Source: a virus (Duplodnaviria; Heunggongvirae; Uroviricota; Caudoviricetes). From it: 15,323 nucleotides of DNA. This document shows positions 1 to 15,323 of this stretch, piece by piece. The notes beneath the pieces are model-generated. The model worked only from the letters and a program-made list of their open reading frames with translations. It ran no database searches and was not told where the DNA came from. The stretch lies in IMG/VR virus record IMGVR_UViG_2609459790_000002, positions 1 through 15,323 of that record. One strand, 5' to 3'. Position 1 is the first letter of the stretch, and the number at the start of each line of letters is the position of its first letter. A program made the translations under genes and the position numbers.

Positions 1-8
1 GGCCCGCG

Positions 9-58
<50 letters not shown>

Positions 59-681
59 ATCCCCGCATAGTCATCATCACAGATTTCAATGACATCACCT
101 GGTACATGGCGAAGCCCTTCGGCACCCACGCTGAAGTCCACGGTCTGCGTTTCCAGCAGTTCCGTTTTAATCAGCCACAGCCCGGCTCGGTGCGCCTGCC
201 CCCGCCTGGTACAGCCAAAGGCATCCATCTTCGTGACGTTACGACCGTAACGGGCAATGGCCTGCGTGTCCTCCACAAGCTCTGTCGCCGTCTCCCAGCC
301 GTTATCCGGGTCAATCCAGTTCACCTCAACGGCATTATGGCGGTCCTTCAGGGCGCTGAAGCTGTAGCGGAACGGCGCGCCATCATCCGGCATCACCACA
401 TTACTGCGGTTATAGGTCCACACCTTATCTGATGGTCGGTCCTGCACGAACGTCAGCGTCTGCCCGTTCCATACCGGCATACAGCGCATCGCCGAGCAGA
501 AATCACTGAGAACATCCCACGCCTTACGCTGTGTGGTCAGCCAGGCATTACAGGTGATGCGCGGCTCCGTGCCGCCAAAACCGTCCGGCACCGACTGGTC
601 GCAACACTGGCCGATGACATACAGCGCCCATTTATCCACATCTGCCGCACCAAGACGTTTACCCATGCCGTAGCGCGGGTG
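59..681 (-). pseudogene. Internal fragment of a lambda J-like tail tip / host-specificity protein (no start, no stop in window)
   Basis: Minus-strand frame whose codons end at plus coordinates divisible by 3 is open from about 681 down to 59. Hand-translated segments: KRLGAADVDKWRLYVIGQCCDQSVPDGFGGTEPRITCNAWLTTQRKAWDVLSDFCSAMRCMPVWNGQTLTFVQDRPSDKVWTYNRSNVVMPDDGAPFRYS (361-660), NVTKMDAFGCTRRGQAHRAG (181-240), EGLRHVPGDVIEICDDDYAGISIG (59-130). I recognise this from memory as the central region of lambda gpJ. Absent from the ORF track because it has no stop codon. Confidence 0.65.
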
Positions 682-916
682 GCTGGAGATCTGTCTCGCT
701 GGCCTGCCGCAGTTCTTCAACTTCCCGGCGCAGCTTTTCGTTCTCAATTTCAGCATCCCTTTCGGCATACCATTTTATGACGGCGGCAGAATCATAAAGC
801 ACCTCATTACCCTTGCCACCGCCTCGCAGAACGGGCATTCCCTGTTCCTGCCAGTTCTGAATGGTACGGATACTCGCACCGAAAATGTCAGCCAGCTGCT
901 TTTTGTTGACTTCCAT
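659..916 (-). pseudogene. nohA: Terminase small subunit Nu1 homologue, truncated after about 79 conserved residues (Qin nohA/nohQ type)
   Basis: Track ORF MEVNKKQLADIFGASIRTIQNWQEQGMPVLRGGGKGNEVLYDSAAVIKWYAERDAEIENEKLRREVEELRQASETDLQP matches the lambda Nu1 N-terminus as I recall it (winged-helix DNA-binding part), then diverges into PALRHG-stop at about nt 680. ATG at 914-916 lies immediately downstream of cosB as in lambda. Confidence 0.8.
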
Positions 917-940
917 TGTTCATTCCACGGACAAAAACAG

Positions 941-1140
941 AGAAAGGAAACGACAAAGGCCAAAAAGCCCGCTTTCAGCACCTGTCGTTTCCTTTCTTTT
1001 CAGGGGGTATTTTAAATAAAAACATTAAGTTACGACGAAGAAGAACGGAAACACCTTAAACCGGAAAATTTTCATAAATAGCGAAAACCCGCGAGGTCGC
1101 CGCCCCGTAACCTGTCGGATCACCGGAAAGGACCCGTAAA
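941..1140 (-). other. Lambda-type cos site: cosB (R1, R2, R3 gpNu1 boxes) and cosN with the 12-nt cohesive-end sequence
   Basis: Minus strand reads GGGCGGCGACCT (plus 1094-1105), the lambda cohesive end. Flanked on one side by the CGTAACCTGTCGGATCACCGGAAAGGACCCGT lambda right-end sequence, on the other by CGCGGGTTTTCGCTATTTATGAAAATTTTCCGG. R3-like box at plus 1042-1054, R2-like 984-997, R1-like 941-954 (CGTTTCC(N)TTCT type). Recognised from memory of the lambda genome ends. Confidence 0.75.
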
Positions 1141-1304
1141 GTGATAATGATTATCATCTACATATCACAACGTGCGTGGAGGCCATCAAACCACGTCAAA
1201 TAATCAATTATGACGCAGGTATCGTATTAATTGATCTGCATCAACTTAACGTAAAAACAACTTCAGACAATACAAATCAGCGACACTGAATACGGGGCAA
1301 CCTC

Positions 1305-1538
1305 ATGTCAACGAAGAACAGAACCCGCAGAACAACAACCCGCAACATCCGCTTTCCTAACCAAATGATTGAACAAATTAACATCGCTCTTGAGCAAAAA
1401 GGGTCCGGGAATTTCTCAGCCTGGGTCATTGAAGCCTGCCGCCGGAGACTGTGCTCAGAAAAAAGAGTTTCTTCTGAAGCAAACAAAGAAAAGAGTGACA
1501 TTACTGAATTGCTCAGAAAACAGGTCAGACCAGATTGA
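1305..1538 (+). CDS. ynfO: Small basic prophage protein (YnfO-like), 77 aa
   Basis: ATG at 1305, first gene after cos; position matches the Qin gene order nohA-ynfO-ydfO. Arg/Thr-rich N-terminus. Symbol assigned by synteny and recollection, not by search. Confidence 0.55.
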   Translation: MSTKNRTRRTTTRNIRFPNQMIEQINIALEQKGSGNFSAWVIEACRRRLCSEKRVSSEANKEKSDITELLRKQVRPD

Positions 1539-1595
1539 AGCAATTTAGATAATCGTGCAGACTACGCCCCCTCATATCACATGGAAGGTTTATCT

Positions 1596-2006
1596 ATGGA
1601 TCAGGTAGTCATTTTTAAACAAATATTTGATAAAGTTCGAAACGATTTAAACTATCAATGGTTTTATTCTGAGCTAAAACGTCACAATGTCTCACATTAC
1701 ATTTACTATTTAGCCACAGAGAATGTTCATATTGTATTAAAAAATGATAATACAGTGTTATTAAAGGGCCTAAAAAACATTGTGTCTGTCAAATTTTCAA
1801 AGGATAGGCATCTTATAGAAACGACCTCTAATAAGCTGAAATCCAGAGAGATCACATTTCAGGAATACAGAAGAAACCTTGCTAAAGCAGGAGTTTTTCG
1901 GTGGGTTACAAATATCCACGAACAAAAAAGATATTACTATACCTTTGATAATTCATTACTATTTACTGAAAGCATCCAGAAAACTACACAGATCTTACCA
2001 CGCTAA
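1596..2006 (+). CDS. ydfO: DUF1398-family prophage protein (YdfO-like), 136 aa
   Basis: Track ORF 1581-2006. The ATG at 1596 has a GGAAGG SD 7 nt upstream (1584-1589) whereas 1581 has none, giving 136 aa. Synteny with Qin ydfO. Confidence 0.6.
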
Positions 2007-2157
2007 ACCATAACGTCCGGCTTCTCTCACTCCTGAGCCGGACTGCATTGGTTTAATAAAAACCATCAACAATTGTGATTTAGATATTCGGAACCATTCA
2101 AATATAACAAAACCCCGTAAAAACGAGGTTTATGGATAAATTTTATTATTGAATACA

Positions 2158-2334
2158 TCAGATTAAATTAATCTTGACATCATAGCTTTCAAGACCCGTC
2201 ATTTTTTCCCGTGCGGTAAACTGAATACTGGTAACTTCTTTCCCGGTCTTTTTCTTAAGTTCAATAATTTTTTTTGTTATATATTCAGAAATATCTGCTT
2301 CTGCTTTTGTTTTTAAGTTTTCAATATTCATCAT
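2158..2334 (-). CDS. gnsB: GnsA/GnsB-family small protein, 58 aa (missed by ORF track, under 60 aa)
   Basis: Hand translation of minus strand: MMNIENLKTKAEADISEYITKKIIELKKKTGKEVTSIQFTAREKMTGLESYDVKINLI, stop TGA at 2158-2160. AAGAGGAA SD 6 nt upstream of tandem ATG ATG (2329-2334). The FTAREKMTGLESYDVK core is the GnsA/GnsB signature as I recall it. Start could be the second ATG (2331). Confidence 0.7.
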   Translation of the reverse strand: MMNIENLKTKAEADISEYITKKIIELKKKTGKEVTSIQFTAREKMTGLESYDVKINLI

Positions 2335-2502
2335 TTCCTCTTTTAGTCTGTTATGACTTTCCAGTTACACAGTAAGTCGATTATATGGTGCAAACGTGTA
2401 AAAGATAAGATGAAACATCGCAATAATCAACATACGATAGTCTAAATTTTACACAAACAGACAAAGAGAATTTTCCTGAATTATCAATGCAATAGCATCA
2501 AA

Positions 2503-2733
2503 TCAACTCAAGAGCCTTATTGCTGCTTCCAGAATTTCTTCTGAAGTAACATGTCGATCCGCGGCTACATAAATGACTTTATGATCTCCGGTCAGAGATG
2601 GAAACCCTGCGGCCATTACAGTAAGGTGTGTTTTTTCGCCATTTGGATATTCACGCATGATGGTGTTAACTCCAGTCATCGCTGGCACTACCACTGCTGG
2701 TTCAGAGTTAAAAAAAACTATGATTTTTTTCAT
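2503..2733 (-). CDS. ynfN: Small hypothetical prophage protein (YnfN-like by position), 76 aa from ATG
   Basis: Track ORF 2503-2775 begins at a TTG; the first ATG is at 2731-2733 (MKKIIVFFNSEPAVVV...). Located between gnsB and cspI as ynfN is in Qin. Start codon is uncertain. Confidence 0.45.
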   Translation of the reverse strand: MKKIIVFFNSEPAVVVPAMTGVNTIMREYPNGEKTHLTVMAAGFPSLTGDHKVIYVAADRHVTSEEILEAAIRLLS

Positions 2734-3004
2734 GATGTTACCGTAGTATGTGAGTATCCATCGAATAGACACCAAGCAAAAAAGCTCCCGAAGGAGCCTT
2801 CATTTTCACTTTTTTAAATCCAACGACAGACGGCTGGCATTTAAGTATTGTGAAATATTATCAAATGTAATCATCATTGATTTACAAAAGATACATTTTG
2901 CCCCGAAAGGATTCATGTCAGAAACATCAAAAGATGATGTTCTATACTGGGAACCATGACAACACGGGCATCTAAAGTGAATATGGTTTGTAATATTGTC
3001 TACC

Positions 3005-3217
3005 TCAAAGCGCCACTACATGAACAGCGGCAGGACCTTTAGGTCCGTTCTCAATACCAAATTCAACTTCCTGATTCTCAGTTAATGTTTTGAAATCGTT
3101 GCTCTGAATTGCTGAGAAATGGACAAACACATCTTTGCTGCCATCTTTCGGCGTGATGAAACCAAAACCTTTTTCAGGGTTAAACCATTTCACTAAACCA
3201 GTCATTTTGTTAGACAT
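3005..3217 (-). CDS. cspI: Cold-shock protein, CspA family, 70 aa
   Basis: [70 protein letters not shown] carries RNP1 (KGFGFI) and RNP2 (VFVHF) motifs. AAGG SD 8 nt upstream of the ATG. Sequence and position match Qin cspI. Confidence 0.9.
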
Positions 3218-3579
3218 AATTATTACCTTTTGAAGAAATTAGCCCTTGGGCAGAATGGTCCGAAAAAAAATATCAGAGAGAAAAACCAACAAGGAAATCT
3301 CAAGAGGTACAAATAATAAAATTATAACAATGACTGCTTCAGATAAATTTGTAACAAACCAGAACACCATTAACGCATGATTAACCACCCATAGCAAGGA
3401 TTACTTTTGTAAAGAAAAACACAGCAATGAAAGAATAGCTTTATTTATTAATAAAACGTGTCATTCTGATTAAGACCTTTTATCTTACCCTTAAGATTTC
3501 AGGAATTTTGGCTCATGGAAGAGTCCTTTTTATTTAAATTTTACATTCCGCGATGTAAATGTTCCGATTTAATATTACC

Positions 3580-4603
<1,024 letters not shown>

Positions 4604-4607
<4 letters not shown>

Positions 4608-4915
4608 AGATATTTATGATGAGGACGCTCGTGCTTATTGGCAGGATTTTCAATCTTAAAGGAGTACTGATGCTGCAGATAAGACTCAACTTTTTCTGAC
4701 AATTTTTCTGCTACTTCCAGGAAGACTTGCCGGACGCTCCTTCTGGCTGCTGCCTCATAAAACTCCAGCGCAGCTCCTTCAACACGGTCCATGGCGACAT
4801 CCAGGTCAAAAATTTCACCGTCAAAGCGTTCTTTGTCCTGTAAGGCTACAGTTACCGTAACTTTATTCTCAAAATTACGGACTCCTTTCACAACCAGTTC
4901 ATAGTCTTGAGTCAT
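4604..4915 (-). CDS. ydfR: Lysis-cassette accessory protein (YdfR / DUF1327-like), 103 aa
   Basis: ATG at 4913-4915 with an AGGAGA SD 8 nt upstream. Sits between holin and endolysin as in Qin. Function unknown. Confidence 0.65.
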
Positions 4916-4919
4916 TGGA

Positions 4920-5135
4920 TTACTCTCCTCTCGCAGCCTTACGCCTGTCTTCTTTAATCTTGAAATAAAGATTTGTCAGATACGTCAGCAGGCCAAAAAC
5001 CAGGCTACCCAGCACACCGATTGCAGCCCACTGTGACGGAGTTACTTTATCGAGTAACTGCAATGCCCAGAAACCAGCATTACCCGCCGATGTGCCATAG
5101 GCAACACCTGTTGTTAACTTATCCATTGATTTCAT
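4920..5135 (-). CDS. essQ: Class II holin (phage 21 S-like) with dual-start motif, 71 aa
   Basis: [71 protein letters not shown] has two TM segments. Met1-Lys-Ser-Met4 is a holin/antiholin dual start. GGTGAGGA SD directly upstream of the ATG at 5133-5135. The track ORF extends to 5210 without SD support. Confidence 0.8.
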
Positions 5136-5354
5136 ATCCTCACCCCGATGTACACGGATGGTGCAATATGTTTGAAAAGATCGGAGTCTACGGGGTAGTT
5201 TTGACAGCACACGTTGTTCTCAACGGCGCTAAAAAAACATACACATTAAAAATGTGGGTAATTATTTTGAAAGAAAGTCATATATAAAATAATAATACGA
5301 GAAATGTTTTCATATTTAGTGTACTGTATACGGCCATTTATACAGGAAAAGCCT

Positions 5355-5525
5355 ATGTCAGAACGTAAAAACTCAAAATCACGCCGTAATTATCTCGTTA
5401 AATGTTCCTGCCCAAACTGCACCCAAGAGTCAGAACACAGTTTTTCAAGAGTACAAAAAGGTGCCCTTTTGATCTGCCCTCATTGCAACAAAGTATTCCA
5501 GACAAATCTTAAAGCTGTAGCCTGA
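5355..5525 (+). CDS. Small zinc-ribbon protein, 56 aa (CxxC...CxxC), possibly the Qin YnfU-type small protein
   Basis: MSERKNSKSRRNYLVKCSCPNCTQESEHSFSRVQKGALLICPHCNKVFQTNLKAVA has two CxxC pairs (CPNC, CPHC). AGGAAAA SD 8 nt upstream of the ATG at 5355. Track ORF 5304-5525 is the longer version. Confidence 0.5.
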   Translation: MSERKNSKSRRNYLVKCSCPNCTQESEHSFSRVQKGALLICPHCNKVFQTNLKAVA

Positions 5526-5577
5526 TTGATTTTATTAGTAACAAGTATTTTTTATATTTTAATAATATATTTAAAGC

Positions 5578-5607
5578 AGATAATAAAAAACCCGCCTGAG
5601 CGGGTTT
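5578..5607 (-). terminator. Rho-independent terminator (minus-strand oriented), between the Zn-ribbon ORF and cspB
   Basis: Stem AAACCCGC (5588-5595) / GCGGGTTT (5600-5607) with a 4-nt loop. On the minus strand it is followed by TTTTTTATTAT; the plus-strand side has a weaker U tract. Confidence 0.55.
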
Positions 5608-5888
5608 GAGATTGTGGTGCTTTTTGTGGGAGTCATCCACTTACGCACTTTGTTTTGCCATGCCAGCAGTTAGCTTCTGCTGTAAAACTATTCATGCAGC
5701 AAACCTGCACTTCACCACAATGGTTAGCATACTTTTCCTGATTAAGATTTTGCCAAATATGCTAGCCATTGTTTCATGTATTGGACCTCCTTACTTTTTA
5801 TTAAAGAGATCCAATATTCACTACTCTGTCCGTATCTCTACTCAGGCATCAGCCTTCTTCGTTATCGTATACAGACGAGCGATGAATT

Positions 5889-6104
5889 TTAATCAGTAAT
5901 GATGACATTTGCTGCTGCAGGACCTTTAGCACCACTCTCTATAGAGAAGGTAACCTTTTGACCTTCAAATAAGGTTCGATAATTATCATTCTGAATCGCA
6001 GAAAAATGCACAAACACATCTTTACTACCATCAACAGGAGAAATAAAGCCGAAACCTTTATCAGCGTTAAACCATTTTACTAAACCAGTCATTTTATTTG
6101 ACAT
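5889..6104 (-). CDS. cspB: Cold-shock protein CspB, 71 aa
   Basis: [71 protein letters not shown] with RNP1/RNP2 motifs. AAGGAA SD 7 nt upstream of the ATG at 6102-6104. Long AT-rich 5' leader region as in csp genes. Confidence 0.9.
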
Positions 6105-6404
6105 TCTACATTCCTTAACTTGAGCCTTTCGGCATAAATGGTTTGCATAACAGAAACGACTTCGTACTTAATTGGAGAGACTCAAAGAAGGAATAAGTGA
6201 ATAACACCTGAAATGAGAACTGCTTTAGTAAACTACTTCGTATATCGTCTGTTCTTCAAACCGACGCAATCATTAACGCATAGTTGAACATATGAAGCAA
6301 TGTTTATTTTAGACATCCAGCCATCTTCAACCCCATCAAAAAACTATAGCTTTCTTCAGGAACGTGTGTATAGTGCGCCAAGTTATCAGTATTAAGGAAT
6401 TTTT

Positions 6405-6617
6405 TTGTCCCGTAAAATGACAGGAATTGTCAAAACCTTTGACGGCAAAAGCGGCAAGGGTCTTATCACCCCATCCGATGGTCGTATCGATGTCCAGCTT
6501 CATGTTTCAGCGCTCAATCTCCGCGATGCAGAAGAAATTACCACCGGATTACGCGTGGAATTTTGCCGGATAAATGGTCTGCGTGGCCCTTCAGCTGCCA
6601 ATGTTTACCTTTCATGA
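6405..6617 (+). CDS. cspF: Cold-shock-protein-family paralogue CspF, 70 aa (TTG start)
   Basis: [70 protein letters not shown]. First codon is TTG at 6405 with an AAGGAA SD 5 nt upstream. Divergent from cspB. RNP motifs are degenerate, as in CspF/CspH. Confidence 0.85.
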
Positions 6618-6671
6618 GCTATATTAAAGCTTTAATTTCAGGCCCCATCGGATCACACATGGAGAGTTTTT

Positions 6672-6761
6672 ATGAATAACCCCGTCTGTCTTGATGACTG
6701 GTTGATTGGCTTTAAAAGCTTATGCTGTACTTTGGCCGTAATAGCTCTGCTAATAATATAA
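6672..6761 (+). CDS. Candidate 29-aa small hydrophobic protein (speculative)
   Basis: ATG at 6672 preceded by GGAGAG (6661-6666) with a 5-nt spacer. [29 protein letters not shown] ends in a hydrophobic stretch. Lies between cspF and the downstream terminator. No homology could be checked. Confidence 0.25.
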
Positions 6762-6907
6762 TAAGCAGACTCATTGTGTTTAGGGACATTGTACTGGAAG
6801 AAAACATTTTAAACATCAGGCAAATAACCAAGTCACCAGCTAAATAATAAGTTAACAGACATGAGTCCCGGGATGAGATTCAACATTACCATTGCCCCAT
6901 TTAAAGC

Positions 6908-6946
6908 ACAAAACCCGCTCATCAGCGGGTTTTCTACTTTTTCTTA
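6908..6946. terminator. Bidirectional rho-independent terminator (cspF terminator on plus strand; tR'-like on minus strand)
   Basis: Stem AAACCCGC (6911-6918) / GCGGGTTT (6925-6932) with a 6-nt loop. Plus strand continues TTTTCTACTTTTTCTT; minus strand continues TTTTGTGCTTT. Lies about 40-60 nt downstream of the predicted late promoter. Confidence 0.6.
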
Positions 6947-6978
6947 ACGTCGGGTATACAAAGCCCATCGTTGAAAAA

Positions 6979-7007
6979 ATTTTATCCATATTTTTTGAAA
7001 AATGCAA
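6979..7007 (-). promoter_or_regulatory. PR'-like sigma70 late promoter immediately downstream of Q (TTGCAT-N17-TAAAAT)
   Basis: On the minus strand: -35 TTGCAT (plus 7002-7007), 17-nt spacer, -10 TAAAAT (plus 6979-6984). Located 30-60 nt after the quuQ stop, the canonical place for the Q-modified late promoter in lambdoid phages. Confidence 0.5.
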
Positions 7008-7038
7008 ACATCATGTCGCCATCTTCAGCAAAAATCAT

Positions 7039-7791
7039 TTATCTCGTCACCTTCCTCAATTGCGCTTCCGCGTATGCTTCTTCCTGCCAGCACTTTGTTA
7101 CCAGTTTACCAATGACGTCCGCATACCCCTTATACCACTGATAATCGGTCAGGTCTGGTACCAGCTTCTGGACATGACGTCGTGCCAGCGTGGTCGGTAA
7201 ACGACTAAACCGGTTTCCATTACAACGCCCACAAATCTTATATACCGGTACGCCATGAAACCGGGTTCTTTTTTCATCCAGAACAATCCCTTTACCCTTA
7301 CACCCTCTGCACGCTGTGCTGGCTTCGCCCTTACCATGGCAATGCTGACATAGTTCCTTCACCCATTCTTCCTTGATTACAGATTCCCCGCGTCTGTAGT
7401 GTTTCACCACTTCGCGCAATACATTATAAAATCCCGTACCTGAACAATGCTCACAGCGAGCCTTACTTGCCGCAGACCTGGAGTAATCAGCAAAGGCAAA
7501 ACTCACGAGGTAAGGAATAATCTGTAACCGGATTTCTTCACTCAATTTGTTCAATGTCGGGTTATCCAGTGCCATCGCGTAATTTAGCAGGCCTTCAATC
7601 GCAAACTGAGGGTCCTGAACACCAACTTTTGCCAGAAATAAGGCCAACCCAAGTGGTGCTTTCGACTGCACCATCCCCTGCGCTGCCATTACATCCGTAA
7701 TTGTTAAACAACCGGTGCCTGTCGCTGGAGCGTCATCGCTCAATTTTGGAGATTTTGGGGAGTAATATTTTGGTAAGGCTTCAAGGTTCAT
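7039..7791 (-). CDS. quuQ: Late-gene antiterminator Q (phage 82/21-type) with four CxxCxGxG zinc-finger repeats, 250 aa
   Basis: ATG at 7789-7791 (MNLEALPKYY...) with a GGAG SD about 7 nt upstream. Track ORF extends to 7821 but would overlap the upstream gene by 17 nt. Contains CEHCSGTG, CQHCHGKG, CRGCKGKG, CGRCNGNR. Position between ydfU and the late promoter matches Q. Confidence 0.8.
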   Translation of the reverse strand: MNLEALPKYYSPKSPKLSDDAPATGTGCLTITDVMAAQGMVQSKAPLGLALFLAKVGVQDPQFAIEGLLNYAMALDNPTLNKLSEEIRLQIIPYLVSFAFADYSRSAASKARCEHCSGTGFYNVLREVVKHYRRGESVIKEEWVKELCQHCHGKGEASTACRGCKGKGIVLDEKRTRFHGVPVYKICGRCNGNRFSRLPTTLARRHVQKLVPDLTDYQWYKGYADVIGKLVTKCWQEEAYAEAQLRKVTR

Positions 7792-7804
7792 GCTCGTTCT
7801 CCAC

Positions 7805-8854
7805 TTACGCCAGTACGCCAATTGCCAGCGCGCGATCGATAAAACGAAATATCAGCTCCAGTTGGGAGCCATACTTATCTTCAAATGCCACTGTATCCGT
7901 ATGCAGCTCGTTGTGATGCTTTCTGCACAAAGGCAACACAAAGAGATCATGTGCTTTTGTTCCCATTCCGCCCTGCCCGTGACCAATCAGATGATGCGGA
8001 TCGTCGGCTGGCATACCGCAGCAAGCACACGGCTGTGTCTTAACCCAACGTGTGTATTTCTCCTTAACCCAGCGGCGACGTTTAGGCAGCTTCATGAAAG
8101 ATTCCGGAGACTCTGGATCAACGGTGATGCTTACCACCGTCTTTTCCTGTGGTGATTTTTGTTGCTGGTGGGCGTAAGGCAACGGTGCAAGATTTTTTGT
8201 GCGTTGTTTCAATATGCTGGTGGCGGTCTGCTCTCCCGGTACGATGTCGCTTTCGCGGTACACCGAGCAGATTTTTTCCGCTGGTAATCCCAGCGAACGA
8301 CGCGATACAGCCTCAGGTAGTGCATCCACCACCTGATTGCAGACCGCCCACCAGGATAATTCAGCCAAAGATAATTCCCGCTCCTGCGTACCGCTTATTG
8401 CGTGACGGATGACGTCAATCACCCATGCTGTCAGATTTTGTTGAGCAAGCAGCTCCAGTGATTCCGATGTCTGGTCACGCAGTTGGTTGTCGCAGTGCCA
8501 GCACAACACCATTGCGCCGGTACCATAACGGTGAATGACTGTTTCAGTGTGATGGTAATCGCCATTAGGCCACTGGCAGGATGTAACATGACGTAATAGC
8601 CAGTCGGACAATGCGCCAACGCCGCCAGCAGCACGAATCACCCGTTCGTTACTAAAAAACGGCAGCAATGTTTTGTCTTCCGCCAGCGGCTGGCGAACGG
8701 CAGGAACGACTCCGGATGGCAGATTACGCATGCTTTTTGGTTCCGGTTCCACCAGCACTCGAGGATTATGAAATATCTGTATGGATTCACGGCCCGGCTT
8801 AAGGACCACCAGCCCAAGCTCAGGCACCAGAACAGGTCTAAGTAATACCCGCAC
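7805..8854 (-). CDS. ydfU: DUF968-family prophage protein YdfU-like with C-terminal HNH-like Cys/His motif, 349 aa
   Basis: Chosen start is GTG at 8852-8854 with GGAGG 4 nt upstream, one nt after the TAA of the upstream ORF. Track ORF extends to 8893 (GTG, no SD); first ATG at 8731 has no SD. C-terminus has CACCGMPADDPHHLIGHGQGG...LCRKHHNELH. Confidence 0.65.
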   Translation of the reverse strand: MRVLLRPVLVPELGLVVLKPGRESIQIFHNPRVLVEPEPKSMRNLPSGVVPAVRQPLAEDKTLLPFFSNERVIRAAGGVGALSDWLLRHVTSCQWPNGDYHHTETVIHRYGTGAMVLCWHCDNQLRDQTSESLELLAQQNLTAWVIDVIRHAISGTQERELSLAELSWWAVCNQVVDALPEAVSRRSLGLPAEKICSVYRESDIVPGEQTATSILKQRTKNLAPLPYAHQQQKSPQEKTVVSITVDPESPESFMKLPKRRRWVKEKYTRWVKTQPCACCGMPADDPHHLIGHGQGGMGTKAHDLFVLPLCRKHHNELHTDTVAFEDKYGSQLELIFRFIDRALAIGVLA

Positions 8855-8855
8855 G

Positions 8856-9134
8856 TTACCTCCAGATCCGTTGCTGGAAAGTGCGGGACGCACGTGGTGG
8901 GCGTTCGGAATAAGGCAGCCTGACAGAGATTATCCAGTGCCGATAGTCGAGACTGAGAGCTTTCTTAACCTCGAACCCGCGCCTGCGGTAAGAATGAATC
9001 AGCCATTCGGCCTGTTCTGCAGTGCATGGAGGGTGCTGGAACCATTCAGACTTGAATGCGTGAGAATACCGCCCGTGCGTGCAGGCAAGAACGGGCGAAT
9101 TATCAGAATTGTAATATTTTGCGTTGCGTGCCAT
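8856..9134 (-). CDS. Hypothetical 92-aa prophage protein, translationally coupled to ydfU
   Basis: ATG at 9132-9134 with a GGAGAA SD 5 nt upstream. Its stop TAA (8856-8858) abuts the ydfU GTG. Protein MARNAKYYNSDNSPVLACTHGRYSHAFKSEWFQHPPC... is not recognised. Confidence 0.5.
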   Translation of the reverse strand: MARNAKYYNSDNSPVLACTHGRYSHAFKSEWFQHPPCTAEQAEWLIHSYRRRGFEVKKALSLDYRHWIISVRLPYSERPPRASRTFQQRIWR

Positions 9135-9200
9135 CGGTTTTCTCCGGTGGCACGGTGTTACTCAGCGGGAGTTCAGCCCCGCGCAAGATTGTAGATGAGT

Positions 9201-9452
9201 TTATTCTCCTGAAAAAGCAGAAAAGCCAGCTTTTATTCCGATCTCTTTCAATGCCTGTAATGAAGTGACAAACTCACCTTCGCGCAAGATAAATCCGTCC
9301 GTGACCCGAGCATCCACAAAATTAATTAACGCAGCCCCATTCTTTCGCAAACACATAATGCGGTAATGACTAACAAGATTTCCATTTTCAACGCACACAG
9401 CATAGAGGCCATCTTCACAAAAAATTTTACGCAGTTCTTCGATGTTCATCAT
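9201..9452 (-). CDS. rem: Small prophage protein Rem-like, 83 aa
   Basis: Tandem ATG ATG at 9447-9452 with a GGAAGGA SD 5 nt upstream. Its position immediately downstream of the relBE-hokD terminator matches rem in Qin. Identity by synteny and length only. Confidence 0.55.
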   Translation of the reverse strand: MMNIEELRKIFCEDGLYAVCVENGNLVSHYRIMCLRKNGAALINFVDARVTDGFILREGEFVTSLQALKEIGIKAGFSAFSGE

Positions 9453-9565
9453 CAGAATCCTTCCGGATAATTAGCTCTCCCCTTTAAGGGACCATCCCTC
9501 TTATCCCTGCGCGCTACTTAAGTATTTTTGATTCTATTCCGGCACCGTCCAGAACTTCAAACGCG

Positions 9566-9600
9566 TTGAAAATAAAAACAAAAACCCGCCGAAGCGGGTT
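9566..9600 (-). terminator. Rho-independent terminator of the relB-relE-hokD operon
   Basis: Stem AACCCGC (9583-9589) / GCGGGTT (9594-9600) with a CGAA loop. On the minus strand it is followed by TTTTTGTTTTTATTTT. About 68 nt downstream of the hokD stop. Confidence 0.65.
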
Positions 9601-9668
9601 AAGTGCGGGTGCGTTGAGGATGCCTGCCACATCAGAGGTGGCGAGGGATTTCTCCCCCGCCGGGTCTC

Positions 9669-9824
9669 TTACTCCTCAGGTTCGTAAGCTGTGAAGACAG
9701 CGACCTCCGTCTGGCCGGTTCGGATTCGTACCTCGCAGAGGTCTTTCCTCGTTACCAGTGCCGTCACTATGACGGTTAAACAGATGACGATCAGGGCGAT
9801 TAACATCGCCTTTTGCTGCTTCAT
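9669..9824 (-). CDS. hokD: Hok-family type I toxin HokD (RelF), 51 aa (missed by ORF track, under 60 aa)
   Basis: Hand translation: MKQQKAMLIALIVICLTVIVTALVTRKDLCEVRIRTGQTEVAVFTAYEPEE. ATG at 9822-9824 with an AGGAGA SD 8 nt upstream; TAA stop at 9669-9671. Hok signature TM helix and LCE motif; third gene of the relBE operon. Confidence 0.85.
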   Translation of the reverse strand: MKQQKAMLIALIVICLTVIVTALVTRKDLCEVRIRTGQTEVAVFTAYEPEE

Positions 9825-9895
9825 AGCCTGCTTCTCCTGTCAACGCAAAGCAGAAGTGTCACCTTCGGTGCGAAACAGAGATGTCATGCTTTGGT

Positions 9896-10183
9896 TCAGA
9901 GAATGCGTTTGACCGCCTCGCTATATACTTCCGAGCGTTCTCTTTTCCCAACAGAAATCACGAAAACGACAACTTTCTCGTCTATAACCTGGTATACAAG
10001 GCGATAGCCTGAAGACCGGAGCTTAATCTTGTAACAATCAGGCATACCACGGAGCTTGTTTGCTTCAATCCGGGGTGACTCAAGTACTTCAACCAGCTTC
10101 TTTTTCAACTGTTCACGTACCGTCGAGCCCAGCTTTCGCCATTCCTTTAGTGCCCGCTCGTCAAAATCCAGAAAATACGCCAT
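9896..10183 (-). CDS. relE: Type II toxin RelE (ribosome-dependent mRNA interferase), 95 aa
   Basis: MAYFLDFDERALKEWRKLGSTVREQLKKKLVEVLESPRIEANKLRGMPDCYKIKLRSSGYRLVYQVIDEKVVVFVISVGKRERSEVYSEAVKRIL is recognised as E. coli RelE. Its ATG overlaps the relB TGA (TGATG). Confidence 0.92.
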   Translation of the reverse strand: MAYFLDFDERALKEWRKLGSTVREQLKKKLVEVLESPRIEANKLRGMPDCYKIKLRSSGYRLVYQVIDEKVVVFVISVGKRERSEVYSEAVKRIL

Positions 10184-10422
10184 CAGAGTTCATCCAGCGT
10201 CACACGTACTGGCTTAGGATTACGAAGCCGTTCTTTCACTATCTCCACAAGTTCAGCATCTTCATCACTCAGGAGTGTCTGTTTGAACGGCAAGCGTTCA
10301 TTGTCAGCGATATACTCGAGCATGAGACGAAGCGCTTCAGAAGGAGTTACACCCATTTTTTCAAGCGCGGCGTAAGAACGCGCTTTAAGTTCATCGTCAA
10401 TACGCAGGTTAATGCTACCCAT
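10183..10422 (-). CDS. relB: Type II antitoxin RelB (RHH DNA-binding), 79 aa
   Basis: MGSINLRIDDELKARSYAALEKMGVTPSEALRLMLEYIADNERLPFKQTLLSDEDAELVEIVKERLRNPKPVRVTLDEL is recognised as E. coli RelB. AGAGGTG SD upstream of the ATG at 10420-10422. Confidence 0.92.
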   Translation of the reverse strand: MGSINLRIDDELKARSYAALEKMGVTPSEALRLMLEYIADNERLPFKQTLLSDEDAELVEIVKERLRNPKPVRVTLDEL

Positions 10423-10475
10423 GTCTTACACCTCTTGTAATTACAAATGTCATTACAAGTATCGCACTACAACAT
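10423..10475 (-). promoter_or_regulatory. relBE promoter/operator region (relO) with TTGTAAT-type repeats
   Basis: Directly upstream of relB: CTTGTAATTACAAATGTCATTACAAG contains inverted and direct TTGTAAT / ATTACAA repeats, consistent with the RelB-RelE-bound operator. Confidence 0.55.
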
Positions 10476-10571
10476 GCTTAGGGCAAGTCACGAAGGAAGT
10501 CAGAAAGTAGTCGTAAGAACGGTGATCACTGTCCGCTTTGTGCCAGAAGCGGATGTTACTTCTTGCATATT

Positions 10572-11483
10572 TCAATTTTCTTCTCCCCACAGCGGTGTAT
10601 CTCCTAACGCTTTAGCAATAAAATCAACAAAGCTGCGAACCTTGAAAGGAATACGGATCGCGCTGGGATAAACAGCCTGAATAGTAAGTTCAGTCGTCCG
10701 GTATGCTGGCAGCAGCTTTATCAGCTTGCCCTGCTTAATATGCTCGCCAAAAACAAAGTTGGGCCCGTAAGCAATGCCTGTTCCGGCCAGTACGGATTCA
10801 AGAAGCAACTGAATGTTATTGGCAGTCATACGGCATGGGCCTTCAATACTGTGCGGCCTGCCTTGTGCATCATAAATCGTCCAGTCTCCCGCTGAAACCG
10901 CCTGGCTGAACGCCAGTCGAGGCGCACGGGAAAGATCATCCGGCGTCTCTGGTGTGCCATGTTTTTTCAAATACTCCGGTGAAGCGCACAAAACCATCCT
11001 GCAAGGTGCCAGCCGCCGCGTAACCAGTGTCGGATCCTCAAAACGCCCAACTCGGATGGCAACATCGATTCGATTTTCGAGCAGATCGGCGTATTTATCC
11101 TCCAGTACAACGTCCAGACTGACCTCCGGAAATTGCTCCAGGTAGCGTGATACGATCCTACCAAGATGCATTGCACCGAAGGCGACCGGTGCTGCAACGC
11201 GAAGCAACCCCTTCGGTGTTTTCTGAACATCACTGGCTTCCCGGTTCGCATCCTCAAGAACCTCAAGAATAACTTTGCAACGTTCATAATACCGCTCACC
11301 GGCATCCGTCAGGCTAAGACGGCGTGTTGAACGCTGAAGAAGTCGTACATTTAGATCAGATTCTATAGCGCTGACATGCTTTCCTGCCATTGCAGCCGAA
11401 AGCTTAAAACGTCTCGCGGCGGCGGCGAAACTGCCTTCATCCACTGCCGCGATAAAAATCTGCATGCTGGTGAACCTGTCCAT
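10572..11483 (-). CDS. LysR-family transcriptional regulator (LTTR), 303 aa
   Basis: N-terminal wHTH signature MDRFTSMQIFIAAVDEGSFAAAARRFKLSAAMAGKHVSAIESDLNVRLLQRSTRRLSLTDAGERYY followed by a substrate-binding domain. Divergent from the adjacent hydrolase gene. Confidence 0.85.
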   Translation of the reverse strand: MDRFTSMQIFIAAVDEGSFAAAARRFKLSAAMAGKHVSAIESDLNVRLLQRSTRRLSLTDAGERYYERCKVILEVLEDANREASDVQKTPKGLLRVAAPVAFGAMHLGRIVSRYLEQFPEVSLDVVLEDKYADLLENRIDVAIRVGRFEDPTLVTRRLAPCRMVLCASPEYLKKHGTPETPDDLSRAPRLAFSQAVSAGDWTIYDAQGRPHSIEGPCRMTANNIQLLLESVLAGTGIAYGPNFVFGEHIKQGKLIKLLPAYRTTELTIQAVYPSAIRIPFKVRSFVDFIAKALGDTPLWGEEN

Positions 11484-11595
11484 AACTTACCACCATTCGA
11501 TAATCAGAGTATCGGCTGTCGACACAATTACGCTGATTATCATCACTCATGACAGCAATTACCATTACCTTAATGACATGAAGAGGCATGAGACG

Positions 11596-12756
11596 ATGAA
11601 AATTAAGGTGAATGGAACGGGTATCCACATTGAGCAACAGGGCAGCGGTGAAATTGCACTGGTATTTTTGCATTATTATGGCGGTTCATCCCGTACATGG
11701 GAGAGCGTGATAAGTCAGTTACCTGACCACTACCGCACAGTTGCAATCGACCACCGGGGCTGGGGGGGCTCAGACGCACCTAAATCAGGATACCGAATTG
11801 GTGACCTTGCTCGGGATGCCGAAGGGGTTATTTCAGCGCTTGAGCTTAAACGCTACATTCTTATTGGCCATTCGATGGGGGGAAAAGTTGCCCAACTGAT
11901 GGCGTCGCGTCGGCCTGCAGGTCTTGAAGGCCTGATGCTTATCGCTCCCTCTCCACCTTCACCTATGCGTCTCACGCCTGAGCAGCGCGATACGTTATCC
12001 AGCGCATATAACAGCCGCGAATCTGTCGGCTTTGTGATTGATAATGTCCTGACAGCGGGGGCACTAAGTTCTGCTCTGCGTGAACAGGTAATCGAGGACA
12101 GTTTGAGGGCCTCATCCGAGGCCAAAGAAGGCTGGCCTAATACGGCTATCGGCGAAGACATTACCCAGGAAGTGGCCTCAATTAATGTCCCTGTGACGGT
12201 CATTTCAGGGGAGTTGGATCGTGTAGACCTTCCGGCTACTCTGCAAAGAGAATTGCTGCCCCTTATTTCACATGCATCAATGTATATTATTCCAGACGTC
12301 GGACATCTCTTGCCTCTGGAGGCCCCTACAGAGGTCGCCAGCCACCTGTTAAAATTTACAGCCGCCATTGAAGGGGGGACAGCAGTCTACCATTCGCCTG
12401 TCGAAACGATAGCCGCGTTTGATGATGCTTTCAATGCAGGCAGGGTTGATGACCTGCTGGCTCTGTTCAGTAACCGTGCCACTATGAAAATGACTGATGG
12501 TGTGGTCATCGAAAGCGATCCTGAAAAGCTTCGGGACACTTTTTTGTCACTGACATCATCCCAGCCAGTTATCAGAAACCATATCCGCTCGATCCTCTCC
12601 GCCGGTGAAATTGCTCTGCTTATTATTGACTGGACTTTGACCATAACCACCAAGGATAGAACACTGCACGAAGAGTCCGGTACAGCAACGCAGGTGTTGT
12701 TGCGAAGCGTTGACGGAGGTTGGCGGCTGCTGATTTCAAATCCATCAGGAACGTAG
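11596..12756 (+). CDS. Alpha/beta-hydrolase fused to a C-terminal NTF2-like / SnoaL-like domain, 386 aa
   Basis: ATG at 11596 with an AAGAGG SD 9 nt upstream; earlier in-frame ATGs at 11464 and 11578 lack an SD and would overlap the LysR start. Nucleophile elbow GHSMGG, HRGWGGSD motif, His in PDVGHLLPLE. The C-terminal 115 aa (AAFDDAFNAGRVDDLLALFS...WRLLISNP) is NTF2/SnoaL-like. Confidence 0.8.
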   Translation: MKIKVNGTGIHIEQQGSGEIALVFLHYYGGSSRTWESVISQLPDHYRTVAIDHRGWGGSDAPKSGYRIGDLARDAEGVISALELKRYILIGHSMGGKVAQLMASRRPAGLEGLMLIAPSPPSPMRLTPEQRDTLSSAYNSRESVGFVIDNVLTAGALSSALREQVIEDSLRASSEAKEGWPNTAIGEDITQEVASINVPVTVISGELDRVDLPATLQRELLPLISHASMYIIPDVGHLLPLEAPTEVASHLLKFTAAIEGGTAVYHSPVETIAAFDDAFNAGRVDDLLALFSNRATMKMTDGVVIESDPEKLRDTFLSLTSSQPVIRNHIRSILSAGEIALLIIDWTLTITTKDRTLHEESGTATQVLLRSVDGGWRLLISNPSGT

Positions 12757-12936
12757 TGAGTTCAGTAAGAATAGCTTGCGCTAGCAATATCGCGTGGCTG
12801 CAGAGAGGTAAGTGACATCCGCCACCACCCGCATGCCGTTTTAAGGCATGCGGTAATAACGATGAGCGCAAGATTGCTGTTATGTCTTGCTGCTTTCGGA
12901 GCGCCTGCTTTTCGCTCTTAGCGGACATTAGCATAG

Positions 12937-14499
12937 GCTATTTACCATAACGCCTCATTACGCGCACCGCCCAGACTGACTCAGCGCGTTTCTGGCATAT
13001 CCCCGGTAAAACAAGTAACAAACCACCCGAAAATGAACACCAGAAACGCGACTTAAGAATCTACCCTATGAATGGATATGCACTCAACCGAATCGATCTT
13101 GGTTTCAATCTTTTTTATCGGGATCAGGCTTCTTTTTAGGTAACTTCGGGGGCTTAACTTGCTGATGACTTTGCGTTCGGCGCGTAAGCCAGGGATGGTC
13201 AGCTTTAGGTTTAACATAGTATTTTGAGCGTAAATCAATACGGGCATTATCCACTCGTTCATGGACACTCTTTTCATCATCCAGTGGTATAGGCTCCGGG
13301 CCATCAACATACTTTTCCCAGCCCAGCGCTTTCCCGTCATACAGAACGTTAATTTCACCGTCAAAGTTCTCGCATACAGTAACAACCGAATGCCTAAGTC
13401 GATATCCCCGGCCCTCACTGCGTACCTGAAACGCACTGCTTTTGTACTGGAAAGTGAGATTTTTAGACAGAACGCGCTTCGCCTGTAGGCTGAAGATATA
13501 ACCCAGTTCCTCTTCAGAATGGTGCACATCAAGATGAGCATTATCAGTAGTACGAGGCGACGTAGCGAACCGGTTGTTATAGGCTTCAATAAAGGTCGGC
13601 AACCATGCATTTGCTGTTTCAATATCACTGATATTCTGAAGCCGCATTTCTTTGACCAGCCTGTCCTGTAGTGTCTGATTGGCGCGCTCTACCCGCCCTT
13701 TTGCCTGCGGGCTGTTGGCATGGATTGGCTCGATGCCCAGTGTCTTTATCGCACGAGTGAACTGGGTCAGCTCACCTTCCCGCTCTGGGTTATTTACCCT
13801 GAATATACTGTGTCTATCAGAGTAGAGAGCGAGCGGTACGCCATGATCATTAAGGTAACCCCGGAGGGTTTCCATGTAAGCCCGGGTTGTTTCAGCAGGC
13901 ACAAAACGCAACGCCATCAACGCACTGGTGGCATCATCAATGAAAACGATCAGTGTACATCTGGGGCCTCGATTTTCAAACCAGTCATGAGGTGAGCCAT
14001 CAATCTGGATCAGTTCACCGTAAGATGGTCGTCGCATGCGGCGTTGATATATACGGGCAATTTTACGACGGCGTTCACGCCATAACCCCTCTTCTATCAT
14101 CCACTTTCTGAGAGTTTCAACGGATAAAGATAAACCGTGTATCTCGCGCAATTTTTCGCACGCAAACGTAGGTCCAAAATCAGCGTAACGGCCTTTGAGG
14201 AGTGAAATTACTGTTGCTCTGAATTCAGTAGAAAAGGAATTATTAGGACGCTTTCCACGTCGGTGGGAAACCAGACCAGAAGGCCCTTCATTTCTATACC
14301 GTTGCACCAGACGTTTAACCTGCCGAATAGAAATGCCAATGCGTGCCGCAGCTTGTTCCTGAATAATCTGAAGTCGGTGGAGTTCCTTATGACTCATCGT
14401 AACAGTCTCTTTGATCATGAAAAATCCCCCAGAGAATTGTCTGGGGACATTTTAGAATGGTTCAAAGGGGACATTACAGCTTGGTGTTAACAATAGCCT
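12937..14499 (-). mobile_element. Insertion sequence carrying the 437-aa DDE transposase; terminal inverted repeats not resolved (ends approximate)
   Basis: Single transposase gene with about 80-170 nt flanks. The only candidate terminal match found by eye is AGGCTATT (12937-12944) against AATAGCCT (14492-14499), which is at chance level. Boundaries are therefore provisional. Confidence 0.35.
13105..14418 (-). CDS. DDE transposase with rve integrase-core domain (IS481/ISNCY-like), 437 aa
   Basis: N-terminal HTH (GISIRQVKRLVQRYRNEGPSGLVSHRRGKRP), DDE-type core (LIQIDGSPHDW..., LALYSDRHSIF, ...RVERANQTLQ) and a Lys/Pro-rich basic tail. ATG at 14416-14418 with a GGGGGA SD. Family assignment is from motif recollection only. 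Confidence 0.8.
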   Translation of the reverse strand: MIKETVTMSHKELHRLQIIQEQAAARIGISIRQVKRLVQRYRNEGPSGLVSHRRGKRPNNSFSTEFRATVISLLKGRYADFGPTFACEKLREIHGLSLSVETLRKWMIEEGLWRERRRKIARIYQRRMRRPSYGELIQIDGSPHDWFENRGPRCTLIVFIDDATSALMALRFVPAETTRAYMETLRGYLNDHGVPLALYSDRHSIFRVNNPEREGELTQFTRAIKTLGIEPIHANSPQAKGRVERANQTLQDRLVKEMRLQNISDIETANAWLPTFIEAYNNRFATSPRTTDNAHLDVHHSEEELGYIFSLQAKRVLSKNLTFQYKSSAFQVRSEGRGYRLRHSVVTVCENFDGEINVLYDGKALGWEKYVDGPEPIPLDDEKSVHERVDNARIDLRSKYYVKPKADHPWLTRRTQSHQQVKPPKLPKKKPDPDKKD

Positions 14500-14797
14500 G
14501 CTTCTCCGTGCCTTTCGGCACGTAAGAGGCTAACCTACATGTGTCTAGCATGAAATTGGCCTCAGATTAATGTTAAGCGTCTTGCAGGACGCGTAATGTT
14601 AACTGGGGCTTTTCTCTATCTGCCGTTGGTGTCCATGCCCGAGGCAGATAGCCTCAAGCACCCGCAGTCATTCTACTTAACTAAGATTTCCCCGCAAACC
14701 GTTTTTGTCCAGCACAGTAAATATCCAACTAAACCAATGGAGTTCGCTGTATTTACCGCCAGTATTCAATGCACATGACCGCCATGAACACCCCTAA

Positions 14798-15323
<526 letters not shown>

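Follow-up and report, generated by a model that had tools for sequence, protein, structure and literature searches.

The DNA stretch analysed here (“the window”, 15,323 nucleotides, positions 1 to 15,323 of the Caudoviricetes record IMGVR_UViG_2609459790_000002 in IMG/VR) carries two divergent genes, one for a LysR-type transcriptional regulator (10572–11483, minus strand, 303 aa) and the other for a 386-aa alpha/beta-hydrolase with a C-terminal, probably NTF2-like domain (11596–12756, plus strand). The two genes lie inside the Qin prophage between two short sites, called here B and A. The explanation that best accounts for all data jointly is that they represent a two-gene cassette, which replaced the flxA segment by exchange at B and A catalysed by a site-specific recombinase; we give this reading a probability of about 0.6. 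The gene pair alone is of modest interest; its packaging and mode of exchange are of greater interest.

The initial annotation of this DNA placed the pair next to the prophage. However, window positions 46–10550 and 12907–15323 are 99.9–100% identical to E. coli chromosomes carrying Qin, and the segment between them (10551–12906, 2,356 bp) substitutes for 975 bp of the E. coli locus L002 (13505–14479), which contain the 3′ part of ydfV and flxA. The usual E. coli gene order after relB is ydfV, flxA, ydfW and the ISNCY transposase gene. From 12907 onwards the sequence is that of Qin again, so that the pair replaces an internal stretch of the prophage and does not lie beside it as cargo. The comparison of GC (guanine plus cytosine) content proposed in the initial annotation was uninformative: the segment has 0.507 against 0.46–0.48, and neither GC content nor GC at third codon positions discriminates the cassette. 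An Rfam scan of positions 10300–13100 gave no match.

Both boundaries of the replaced segment fall within short palindromic sites. A and B are 24-bp dyads, in which arms of seven conserved and two variable positions surround a 6-bp centre (7+2, 6, 2+7). The B consensus, obtained as a logo of 69 distinct copies, is GTCCGCTTT-GTGCCA-GAAGCGGAC (also written GTCCGCTTY-GTGCCA-GAAGCGGAC), and the A consensus, from 64 distinct copies, is GTCCGCTTC-TCGCTC-ACAGCGGAC. Among these copies, the centre is conserved at 95–100%, which is above the conservation of the arms. Cassettes are oriented from B to A, and consecutive cassettes are separated by an A followed by a B, with a start-to-start distance of 42 nt (an 18-bp linker) in 44 of 49 junctions. 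The largest array, with five junctions within 4.3 kb, occurs in Rahnella. The strict junction motif is restricted to Enterobacterales (25 stretches, approximately 23 species), and a looser search detects junctions in 2,194 of 5,426 complete E. coli genomes, always in intergenic positions.

The two sites of the window are hybrids. Site B, the left boundary of the cassette (10531–10554, GTCCGCTTT-GTGCCA-GAAGCGGAT), has the outer arm of Qin ydfV and the inner arm of the incoming cassette: L002 and the plasmid locus L058 have exactly its outer arm and left flank, and its spacer, inner arm and right flank recur unchanged in the cassette copies of L003–L011 and L048–L057. Site A, the right boundary (12903–12926, GCCTGCTTT-TCGCTC-TTAGCGGAC), combines the inner arm and spacer of the cassette with the outer arm of Qin. 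An assembly chimera is an unlikely source of this arrangement because both junctions are precise hybrids within conserved sites, and other cassettes share the outer arms of the slot. A truncated chimeric ydfV′ open reading frame (10447–10671, plus strand, 74 aa) crosses site B into the cassette, and a look-up revealed no gene with exactly this product on record. In L002, the B site lies within ydfV too (13401–13706, 101 aa), and the 3′ part of this gene is therefore contributed by the cassette that currently occupies the slot; this position casts doubt on ydfV as a real gene.

Breakpoints were read from a table of mismatches in the two arms and the spacer, using 37 site pairs that share one flank only; a histogram built from runs of maximal identity could not be used, because the conservation of the sites blurred it. 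The arm on the shared side is identical in 35 of these pairs and the spacer in 36, and the arm on the unshared side differs in 36. Over many contexts, a given cassette keeps its inner arm and a given context its outer arm, with no change in the 6-bp centre. One and the same cassette, with its centre and inner arm, is joined to six outer B arms and to five or six outer A arms. Five different upstream cassettes are found joined to the linker unit, composed of the A outer arm, the 18 bp and the B outer arm, which means that this unit assorts independently. The sites have inverted arms and a 6-bp asymmetric centre that is shared by the partners, with exchange placed within the centre in 35–36 of the 37 pairs. 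This combination of inverted arms, an invariant asymmetric centre and exchange inside it corresponds to the anatomy of a tyrosine-recombinase core site.

The most direct evidence for replacement comes from the contents of the slot. It holds flxA in L002, the LysR–hydrolase pair in the window, and genes for a CDF transporter and cytochrome b in the Klebsiella pneumoniae plasmid pKP5076-1 (L058), where relE and relB are followed by B and A sites with outer arms identical to those of the window. The CDF transporter/cytochrome b cassette of this plasmid is 99.9% identical to a copy in a CP4-like island (L004), and the homology of the two copies starts and ends inside both 6-bp spacers. Three cassettes between identical outer arms are direct evidence for one-for-one replacement at a fixed slot. 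The same type of packaging is seen in E. coli EC102, where A-linker-B junctions (L019, 6160–6225 and 9004–9069) separate functional modules, namely an ATP-dependent nuclease with a UvrD-helicase, an AAA ATPase with DUF4435, and a lactonase/amidohydrolase/LysR catabolic cluster. Judging from these gene contents, modules of a putative anti-phage type are packaged by the same A/B junctions.

Neither megablast nor a search at blastn sensitivity detected the LysR–hydrolase cassette itself in any of the 5,426 complete E. coli genomes. It is found with 99.0% identity on the IncFII plasmid pLH71-A of Klebsiella michiganensis (L001) and with 99.7–99.9% identity in CP4-like islands and other integrative elements, which provide approximately 19 island contexts. 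Klebsiella, Citrobacter, Hafnia and Yersinia are among the hosts of these plasmids and islands. The neighbours of the cassette in the CP4-like islands are genes for a YeeP-like GTPase, DUF932, antirestriction, RadC and CbtA/CbeA proteins. The homology to the window begins at about 10531 and stops at about 12926 in every context. Records of the exact hydrolase protein come from Hafnia, Citrobacter and other Enterobacterales, and nearly identical cluster members occur in Klebsiella, Rahnella and Erwinia. For the regulator, the exact protein is catalogued as MULTISPECIES Enterobacterales and is also recorded for Yersinia. Diverged lineages of the cassette, on an Enterobacter plasmid (about 80% nucleotide identity) and in Pantoea-type loci (74% protein identity), are likewise bounded by B and A. 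The absence from E. coli, together with the identical proteins across genera of Enterobacterales, indicates that the pair is horizontally acquired cargo. The pair is also not a set of ordinary conserved chromosomal genes with an established substrate.

The initial annotation had suggested that this cargo could have been acquired with the mobile DNA, and its horizontal origin is upheld by these data, whereas delivery by insertion sequence (IS) elements is not. It was right in noting that the pair is followed by two IS elements: a transposase gene of the ISNCY/IS1202 family (13105–14418) and the end of an ISKpn26 copy (from 14798). Composite or one-ended transposition by the adjacent ISNCY/ISEsa1-like element and ISKpn26 might be considered on these grounds, the more so because both lie within 2 kb on the right and the ISNCY-type element does mobilise passenger genes. 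However, the IS elements do not flank the pair, since the left side has none; flxA stands in place of the pair in E. coli genomes that have these very ISNCY and ISKpn26 copies, and the ISNCY-type unit also exists without the LysR–hydrolase cassette. Wherever the cassette occurs, it ends at the A and B sites, in most cases with no IS nearby, and the inverted repeats and target duplication of the ISNCY-type unit lie far outside the cassette (9838 and 14492), enclosing relBE too. Delivery by these elements is therefore highly improbable, and a composite or IS-bounded transposon was rejected as the vehicle.

The best candidate for the exchange enzyme is a 200-aa tyrosine recombinase. It consists of no more than a XerC-like catalytic domain, in which the HxxR and RY motifs are present, and belongs to a broad family annotated just as site-specific integrase. 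In E. coli and Mixta, its gene has an A site 63 bp upstream and a B site 19 bp downstream, and the copies flanked in this manner (L004, 12784–13491; L020, 7987–8670; L028, 7343–8000) occupy the usual position of the 18-bp linker. The gene is located within about 3.5 kb of the LysR–hydrolase cassette in 15 of the 19 island contexts, it is present in 889 of the 5,426 complete E. coli genomes, and a Qin-like prophage carries it at the corresponding place. In the preferred reading, the cassette entered Qin by exchange at both sites, displacing the resident flxA cassette. The site-specific recombinase would act on B with B and on A with A, and the 200-aa protein would do so in trans in the case of the window. 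This natural recombinase-mediated cassette exchange is proposed from the two non-pairing centre types that flank the segment, as they do in engineered cassette exchange.

Several observations weigh against enzymatic exchange. The window contains no recombinase gene, and the connection between the candidate recombinase and the sites is one of genetic linkage. The copy on pLH71-A (L001) breaks the arm rule, its inner B arm being different despite the shared flank. As single-stranded DNA, the 66-bp junction can fold into a long imperfect hairpin (−17.7 kcal/mol, z = −4.1) with mismatches at both centres. Moreover, conservation within the sites is highest at the centre, where recombination over short homology would also tend to resolve, and for this reason breakpoint mapping alone is no proof of enzymatic exchange.

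This last point brings in a serious rival, which we nevertheless regard as unlikely. According to it, A and B are repeated intergenic palindromes (REP- or terminator-like, REP standing for repetitive extragenic palindromic), and the cassettes are swapped by RecA or by lambdoid Red/RecET short-homology recombination with no dedicated recombinase. The sites are indeed short conserved repeats, widespread in E. coli and always intergenic, and crossovers must lie in identical tracts, among which the centre is the most conserved and the longest shared one; besides the window, which lacks a recombinase gene, many site-bearing loci have no 200-aa recombinase within 8 kb. However, the identity tracts between different copies are just about 6–15 bp, well under the lengths used efficiently by RecA or Red. 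Further points against it are the recombinase-core architecture, the strict alternation of the two centre types, a linker of fixed length in most junctions that assorts independently of both neighbouring cassettes, and a tyrosine recombinase gene placed exactly at the linker position in three independent contexts.

The hairpin suggests another possibility, in which the A-18 bp-B junction would fold as a single strand into an attC-like structure, and a recombinase would insert and excise circular cassettes there, as in integrons. A and B are near-inverted copies of one another, the arrays of up to five junctions resemble cassette arrays, and in many islands the recombinase gene stands at the array. 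Nonetheless, each junction should show a single boundary if the reaction were of the attC type, whereas the observed boundaries lie in both the A and the B centres and the linker is exchangeable. In Qin the cassette was replaced and not added, at a slot having a single B and a single A and no full junction. Neither the attC consensus GTTRRRY nor an IntI-type integrase was found in the window and the related loci, and gene orientation is mixed within the cassettes. We consider an integron-like reaction rather improbable, and exchange at B and A by a site-specific recombinase remains the preferred explanation.

The slot is itself part of a transposable unit of the IS1202 family (9838–14492, 4655 bp), which carries relE, relB, the B/A slot and the transposase gene. 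Its left and right inverted repeats (9838–9863 and 14467–14492) are identical at 19 of 26 positions and have TGT...ACA ends, and it is enclosed by 15-bp target-site duplications (9823–9837, ATAGCCTGCTTCTCC, and 14493–14507). The 437-aa transposase is encoded on the minus strand at 13105–14418 (ISNCY/IS1202 family, ISEsa1-like; NCBIfam ISNCY_2, 7e-137), and E. coli records give the name ydfW to its 3′ end. The passenger toxin–antitoxin genes relE (9896–10183) and relB (10183–10422) are also on the minus strand. An empty site of the unit is preserved in another E. coli prophage (L020, 10660–10780), and an independent copy in L058 (1490–1531 and 7572–7613) has a 16-bp duplication of its own. Thus the ends, repeats, large DDE transposase and target duplication with an empty site are all those of the IS1202 family. 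The arrangement is nested: the Qin prophage contains the relBE-carrying IS1202-family element, which contains the A/B slot, which contains the LysR–hydrolase cassette. The ISKpn26 (IS5-family) end (14798–15323, minus strand) starts with GGAAGGTGCGAATAAG and runs off the end of the window.

TGT...ACA ends, imperfect repeats of 24–26 bp and duplications of 15–16 bp are described for one subgroup of the IS1202 family (PMC10132070), a family that also includes “transporter IS” with passenger genes. The window unit resembles these elements in its large DDE transposase, its ends, its long target duplications and its passenger genes. ISEsa1 is listed in ISFinder as an element of 1609 bp with no target duplication (PMC10132070). 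In contrast, the window-type unit has 3.3–4.7 kb, or more depending on its cassette and IS content, carries relBE and has an internal cassette slot. The inner end of the 1609-bp ISEsa1, as defined in ISFinder, was not located in the window element. Either the ends of ISEsa1 may be misdefined, or the window unit may be a longer, passenger-carrying relative.

Since the left target duplication overlaps the start codon of hokD, the relB–relE–hokD (relBEF) order appears to have been created by insertion of the unit just upstream of hokD. In the Qin-like prophage that lacks the unit (L020), hokD is present alone. The octamer GGACATTA is common to the outer arm and flank of site A (GGACATTAGC, 12919–12930) and to the inward portion of the right inverted repeat (GGGGACATTACAGC, 14467–14480), and this may be a matter of chance or a transposase-binding motif.

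An IS110-family element in L058 (4489–4510 and 5980–6006) is located exactly at the boundary between arm and centre of an A site (GTCCGCTTC-ACGCCCTGAGACATTCG ... TGACTATA-TCTCGCTCTTAGCGGAC), and the same IS110-family end follows the A inner arm of a hydrolase cassette on another plasmid (L047, about 6480–6500). These positions suggest that the IS110-family element targets A sites. A comparable preference is known for IS1111-type elements, which target attC. Site-targeting IS elements also occur in the dif system of Acinetobacter, where they are relatives of ISAjo2 (PMC10132070); here, it is an IS110-family end that lies at the arm/centre boundary of the A site, in two loci.

Passing to the genes of the cassette, the regulator matches the Pfam families HTH_1 (PF00126, 7.4e-17) and LysR_substrate (PF03466, 3.5e-39), both above the gathering scores, and its N-terminal winged helix-turn-helix and C-terminal substrate-binding domain are those of a LysR-type protein. 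Its nearest NCBIfam models, YafC and AaeR, score far under the equivalog cut-offs. The 112-bp divergent control region (11484–11595) contains the dyad CGATA-N7-TATCG (11498–11514) and the motif ATTATCA (11536–11542). In the alignment, both are unchanged across the window, the Pantoea-type loci and Paraburkholderia, and the rest of the spacer has diverged. The dyad region is likely the LysR operator, although read strictly the dyad is of the A-N11-T type and not the T-N11-A type of LysR operators. The divergent pairing of regulator and hydrolase is kept in the Pantoea-type loci and Paraburkholderia, with no further neighbour conserved. This constancy of the pair, along with the invariant dyad and the lack of other conserved neighbours, argues for functional coupling of the regulator and the hydrolase, and conservation over such a distance points to an old, self-sufficient sensor-plus-enzyme unit. 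Most likely, the regulator would sense a small molecule and switch on the divergent hydrolase gene.

The alpha/beta-hydrolase part of the enzyme occupies residues 1–260 (Pfam Abhydrolase_1, 3.4e-26). The initial annotation correctly pointed out the GHSMGG nucleophile elbow, which corresponds to residues 91–96 (nt 11866–11883). Ser93, Asp208 and His237 are invariant in 45 aligned homologues and follow the Ser-Asp-His order of the canonical alpha/beta fold, and the HYYGGS oxyanion loop, which is unusual, is invariant as well. The open frame reaches back to 11464, and RefSeq/PGAP annotate a protein of 430 aa (WP_048280194.1) that starts inside the LysR gene. None of the 45 homologues keeps the 44-residue N-terminal extension; all begin with M-x-I-x-x-NGT, which places the hydrolase start at 11596. 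Judged by this alignment, the annotated 430-aa start is probably wrong.

The C-terminal domain (residues ~261–386, nt 12376–12753) was described in the initial annotation as SnoaL/NTF2-like, and several lines of evidence agree with this. Its Pfam scores are narrowly under the gathering values (26.6 vs 27 for SnoaL_2, 23.2 vs 25.2 for DUF4440), and its homologues carry precomputed hits to both families (PF12680 and PF14534). The AlphaFold2 model of the hydrolase is confident (predicted local distance difference test 92.8, predicted template-modelling score 0.91) and gives this domain three helices and a curved sheet of about six strands. A sequence comparison with the Protein Data Bank (PDB) yielded, besides non-significant matches, a single weak one, to the NTF2-like protein YybH (2gxf, E=0.0065).

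The fusion of the two domains is uncommon, as had been supposed. It forms a single family of proteins of about 387 residues, 53–99% identical to the window protein over at least 120 clusters, with hosts including Pantoea, Tatumella, Paraburkholderia, Caballeronia, Trinickia and Duganella. Clustering at 50% identity leaves essentially one further full-length representative of the fusion (about 389 aa); apart from it, the NTF2 part is closest to stand-alone proteins of about 125–140 aa. On these sequence comparisons, the fusion is regarded as one coherent, uncharacterised family; no description of it was found in the literature, the coverage of this search being incomplete.

A Foldseek comparison of the AlphaFold2 model with PDB gave template-modelling (TM) scores of 0.8–0.87 to aryl esterases, enol-lactonases and haloperoxidases. 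Among the structures that align with the alpha/beta part are the aryl esterase 1va4, the 3-oxoadipate enol-lactonase 2xua, the acyl-homoserine-lactone-degrading Est816 (5egn) and non-haem haloperoxidases. The protein would be a cytoplasmic Ser-Asp-His alpha/beta-fold hydrolase, probably an esterase or a lactonase. It would be inducible and may act on a small, probably plant- or soil-derived compound, and the earlier guess of small-molecule detoxification or signal degradation is plausible. Some results weigh against a closer assignment: the characterised relatives are not close, the best NCBIfam model (PcaD) being far under its cut-off, no two-domain relative was found among the solved structures by Foldseek against PDB, and catalytic residues are not identifiable in the NTF2 domain. 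An identity as PcaD was rejected, since TIGR02427 gives 107 bits against a cut-off of 255.85 and pca genes adjoin the pair in none of about 30 loci; the BioH, MenH, RutD and macrolide-esterase equivalogs were rejected too, with scores far under the NCBIfam cut-offs.

The NTF2-like domain probably contributes to the substrate pocket or serves as an oligomer interface. Alternatively, it may be catalytic itself (isomerase, cyclase or epoxide-hydrolase-like), making the protein a bifunctional two-step enzyme. Both folds hold known catalytic families, such as the SnoaL cyclases, ketosteroid isomerases and limonene epoxide hydrolase; the domain has weak matches to a steroid isomerase and to polyketide cyclases, and it is strongly conserved, Asp276, Asn280, Trp346, Gln366, Trp376 and Asn382 being invariant or nearly so. 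However, the top match is the uncharacterised YybH, the isomerase matches have E>0.2 and span the first helix only, and the conserved residues are typical of the FDxAxNxGD helix and GTxTxV strand of the fold and mark no active site. We consider a second catalytic centre doubtful and prefer a structural contribution to the pocket or the interface.

The divergent position of a LysR gene and an alpha/beta serine hydrolase gene is also found in catabolic and detoxification modules controlled by LysR-type regulators, such as those of the PcaD enol-lactonases and the aryl esterase of Pseudomonas fluorescens. In contrast to these modules, the window pair has no pathway neighbours, and the hydrolase has the HYYGGS loop and the NTF2-like fusion, which is lacking in all solved relatives.

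Regarding the mode of packaging, the Acinetobacter dif modules are, on the basis of layout, the closest analogue of the A/B cassettes. In these modules (PMC13141974, PMC6449649), resistance, toxin–antitoxin or metabolic genes lie between short sites of alternating orientation, boundaries are identical in many replicons, and half-sites define the module. The window cassettes likewise recur with identical boundaries across replicons and between alternating sites. The differences concern the sites, the range and the enzyme. The A and B sites have 24 bp and near-symmetric GTCCGCT arms, with no likeness to the 11-6-11 XerC/XerD consensus. This 28-bp dif consensus consists of an 11-bp XerC arm, a 6-bp centre and an 11-bp XerD arm. 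The A/B system has two centre types, its range is Enterobacterales, its hosts are prophages, CP4-like islands and IncF plasmids, and its candidate enzyme is a dedicated 200-aa recombinase and not the XerCD of the host.

Integrons (attC/IntI) share with the A/B cassettes the arrayed, promoter-independent mobile units with no mobility gene of their own, the imperfect palindromic sites and a tyrosine recombinase gene at the array. In addition to lacking the attC consensus and IntI, the A/B cassettes differ in having two heterologous boundaries each, in carrying their own regulators and promoters, often with several genes in either orientation, and in being replaced rather than inserted. The R64 shufflon, served by the recombinase Rci, has the core 5′-GTGCCAA-3′ in its sfx sites (PMC4176322), and the B centre GTGCCA(G/A) is nearly the same; alternating site orientation and a conserved asymmetric centre are common to both systems. 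However, the conserved right arm of sfx is missing from B, and shufflons invert pilV segments in place with no transfer of cargo. Rci is about twice as long as the 200-aa recombinase, and no NCBIfam or tblastn signal was found between the two. We found no description of the A/B site sequences or of cassettes flanked by such repeats in the literature, the coverage of which was incomplete; nor do repeats of this kind figure in a 2026 paper on P2/P4 defence hotspots.

Two side observations concern the left end of the window. Positions 1–45 do not align to the E. coli genomes that match the remainder. The first 500 bases, which lie within phage tail pseudogene remnants, have an unusually high GC content (0.63).

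In a more tentative vein, which we would rather put forward as an open possibility than as a conclusion, one can suggest that these data reveal an undescribed cassette-exchange system of Enterobacterales. It would use the heterospecific sites A and B, and probably the 200-aa recombinase, for swapping modules among prophages, IncF plasmids, CP4-/P4-like islands and the IS1202-family transposon. In such a system, flxA of K-12 and the slot beside relBE may be a resident example, and the swapped modules may include regulated enzymes, metal transporters, toxin–antitoxin genes and anti-phage systems. The LysR–hydrolase cassette is a clean, portable sensor-plus-hydrolase unit, the regulator and conserved putative operator of which offer a direct route to the substrate.

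If the exchange is enzymatic, it would provide annotators with a simple sequence signature for delimiting cargo modules, and the heterospecific site pair together with a very small recombinase would be usable in genome engineering. It would explain how modules with base-perfect boundaries appear in unrelated mobile elements throughout the order with neither transposases nor long homology, and it would represent a third natural cassette system beside the integrons and the Acinetobacter dif modules.

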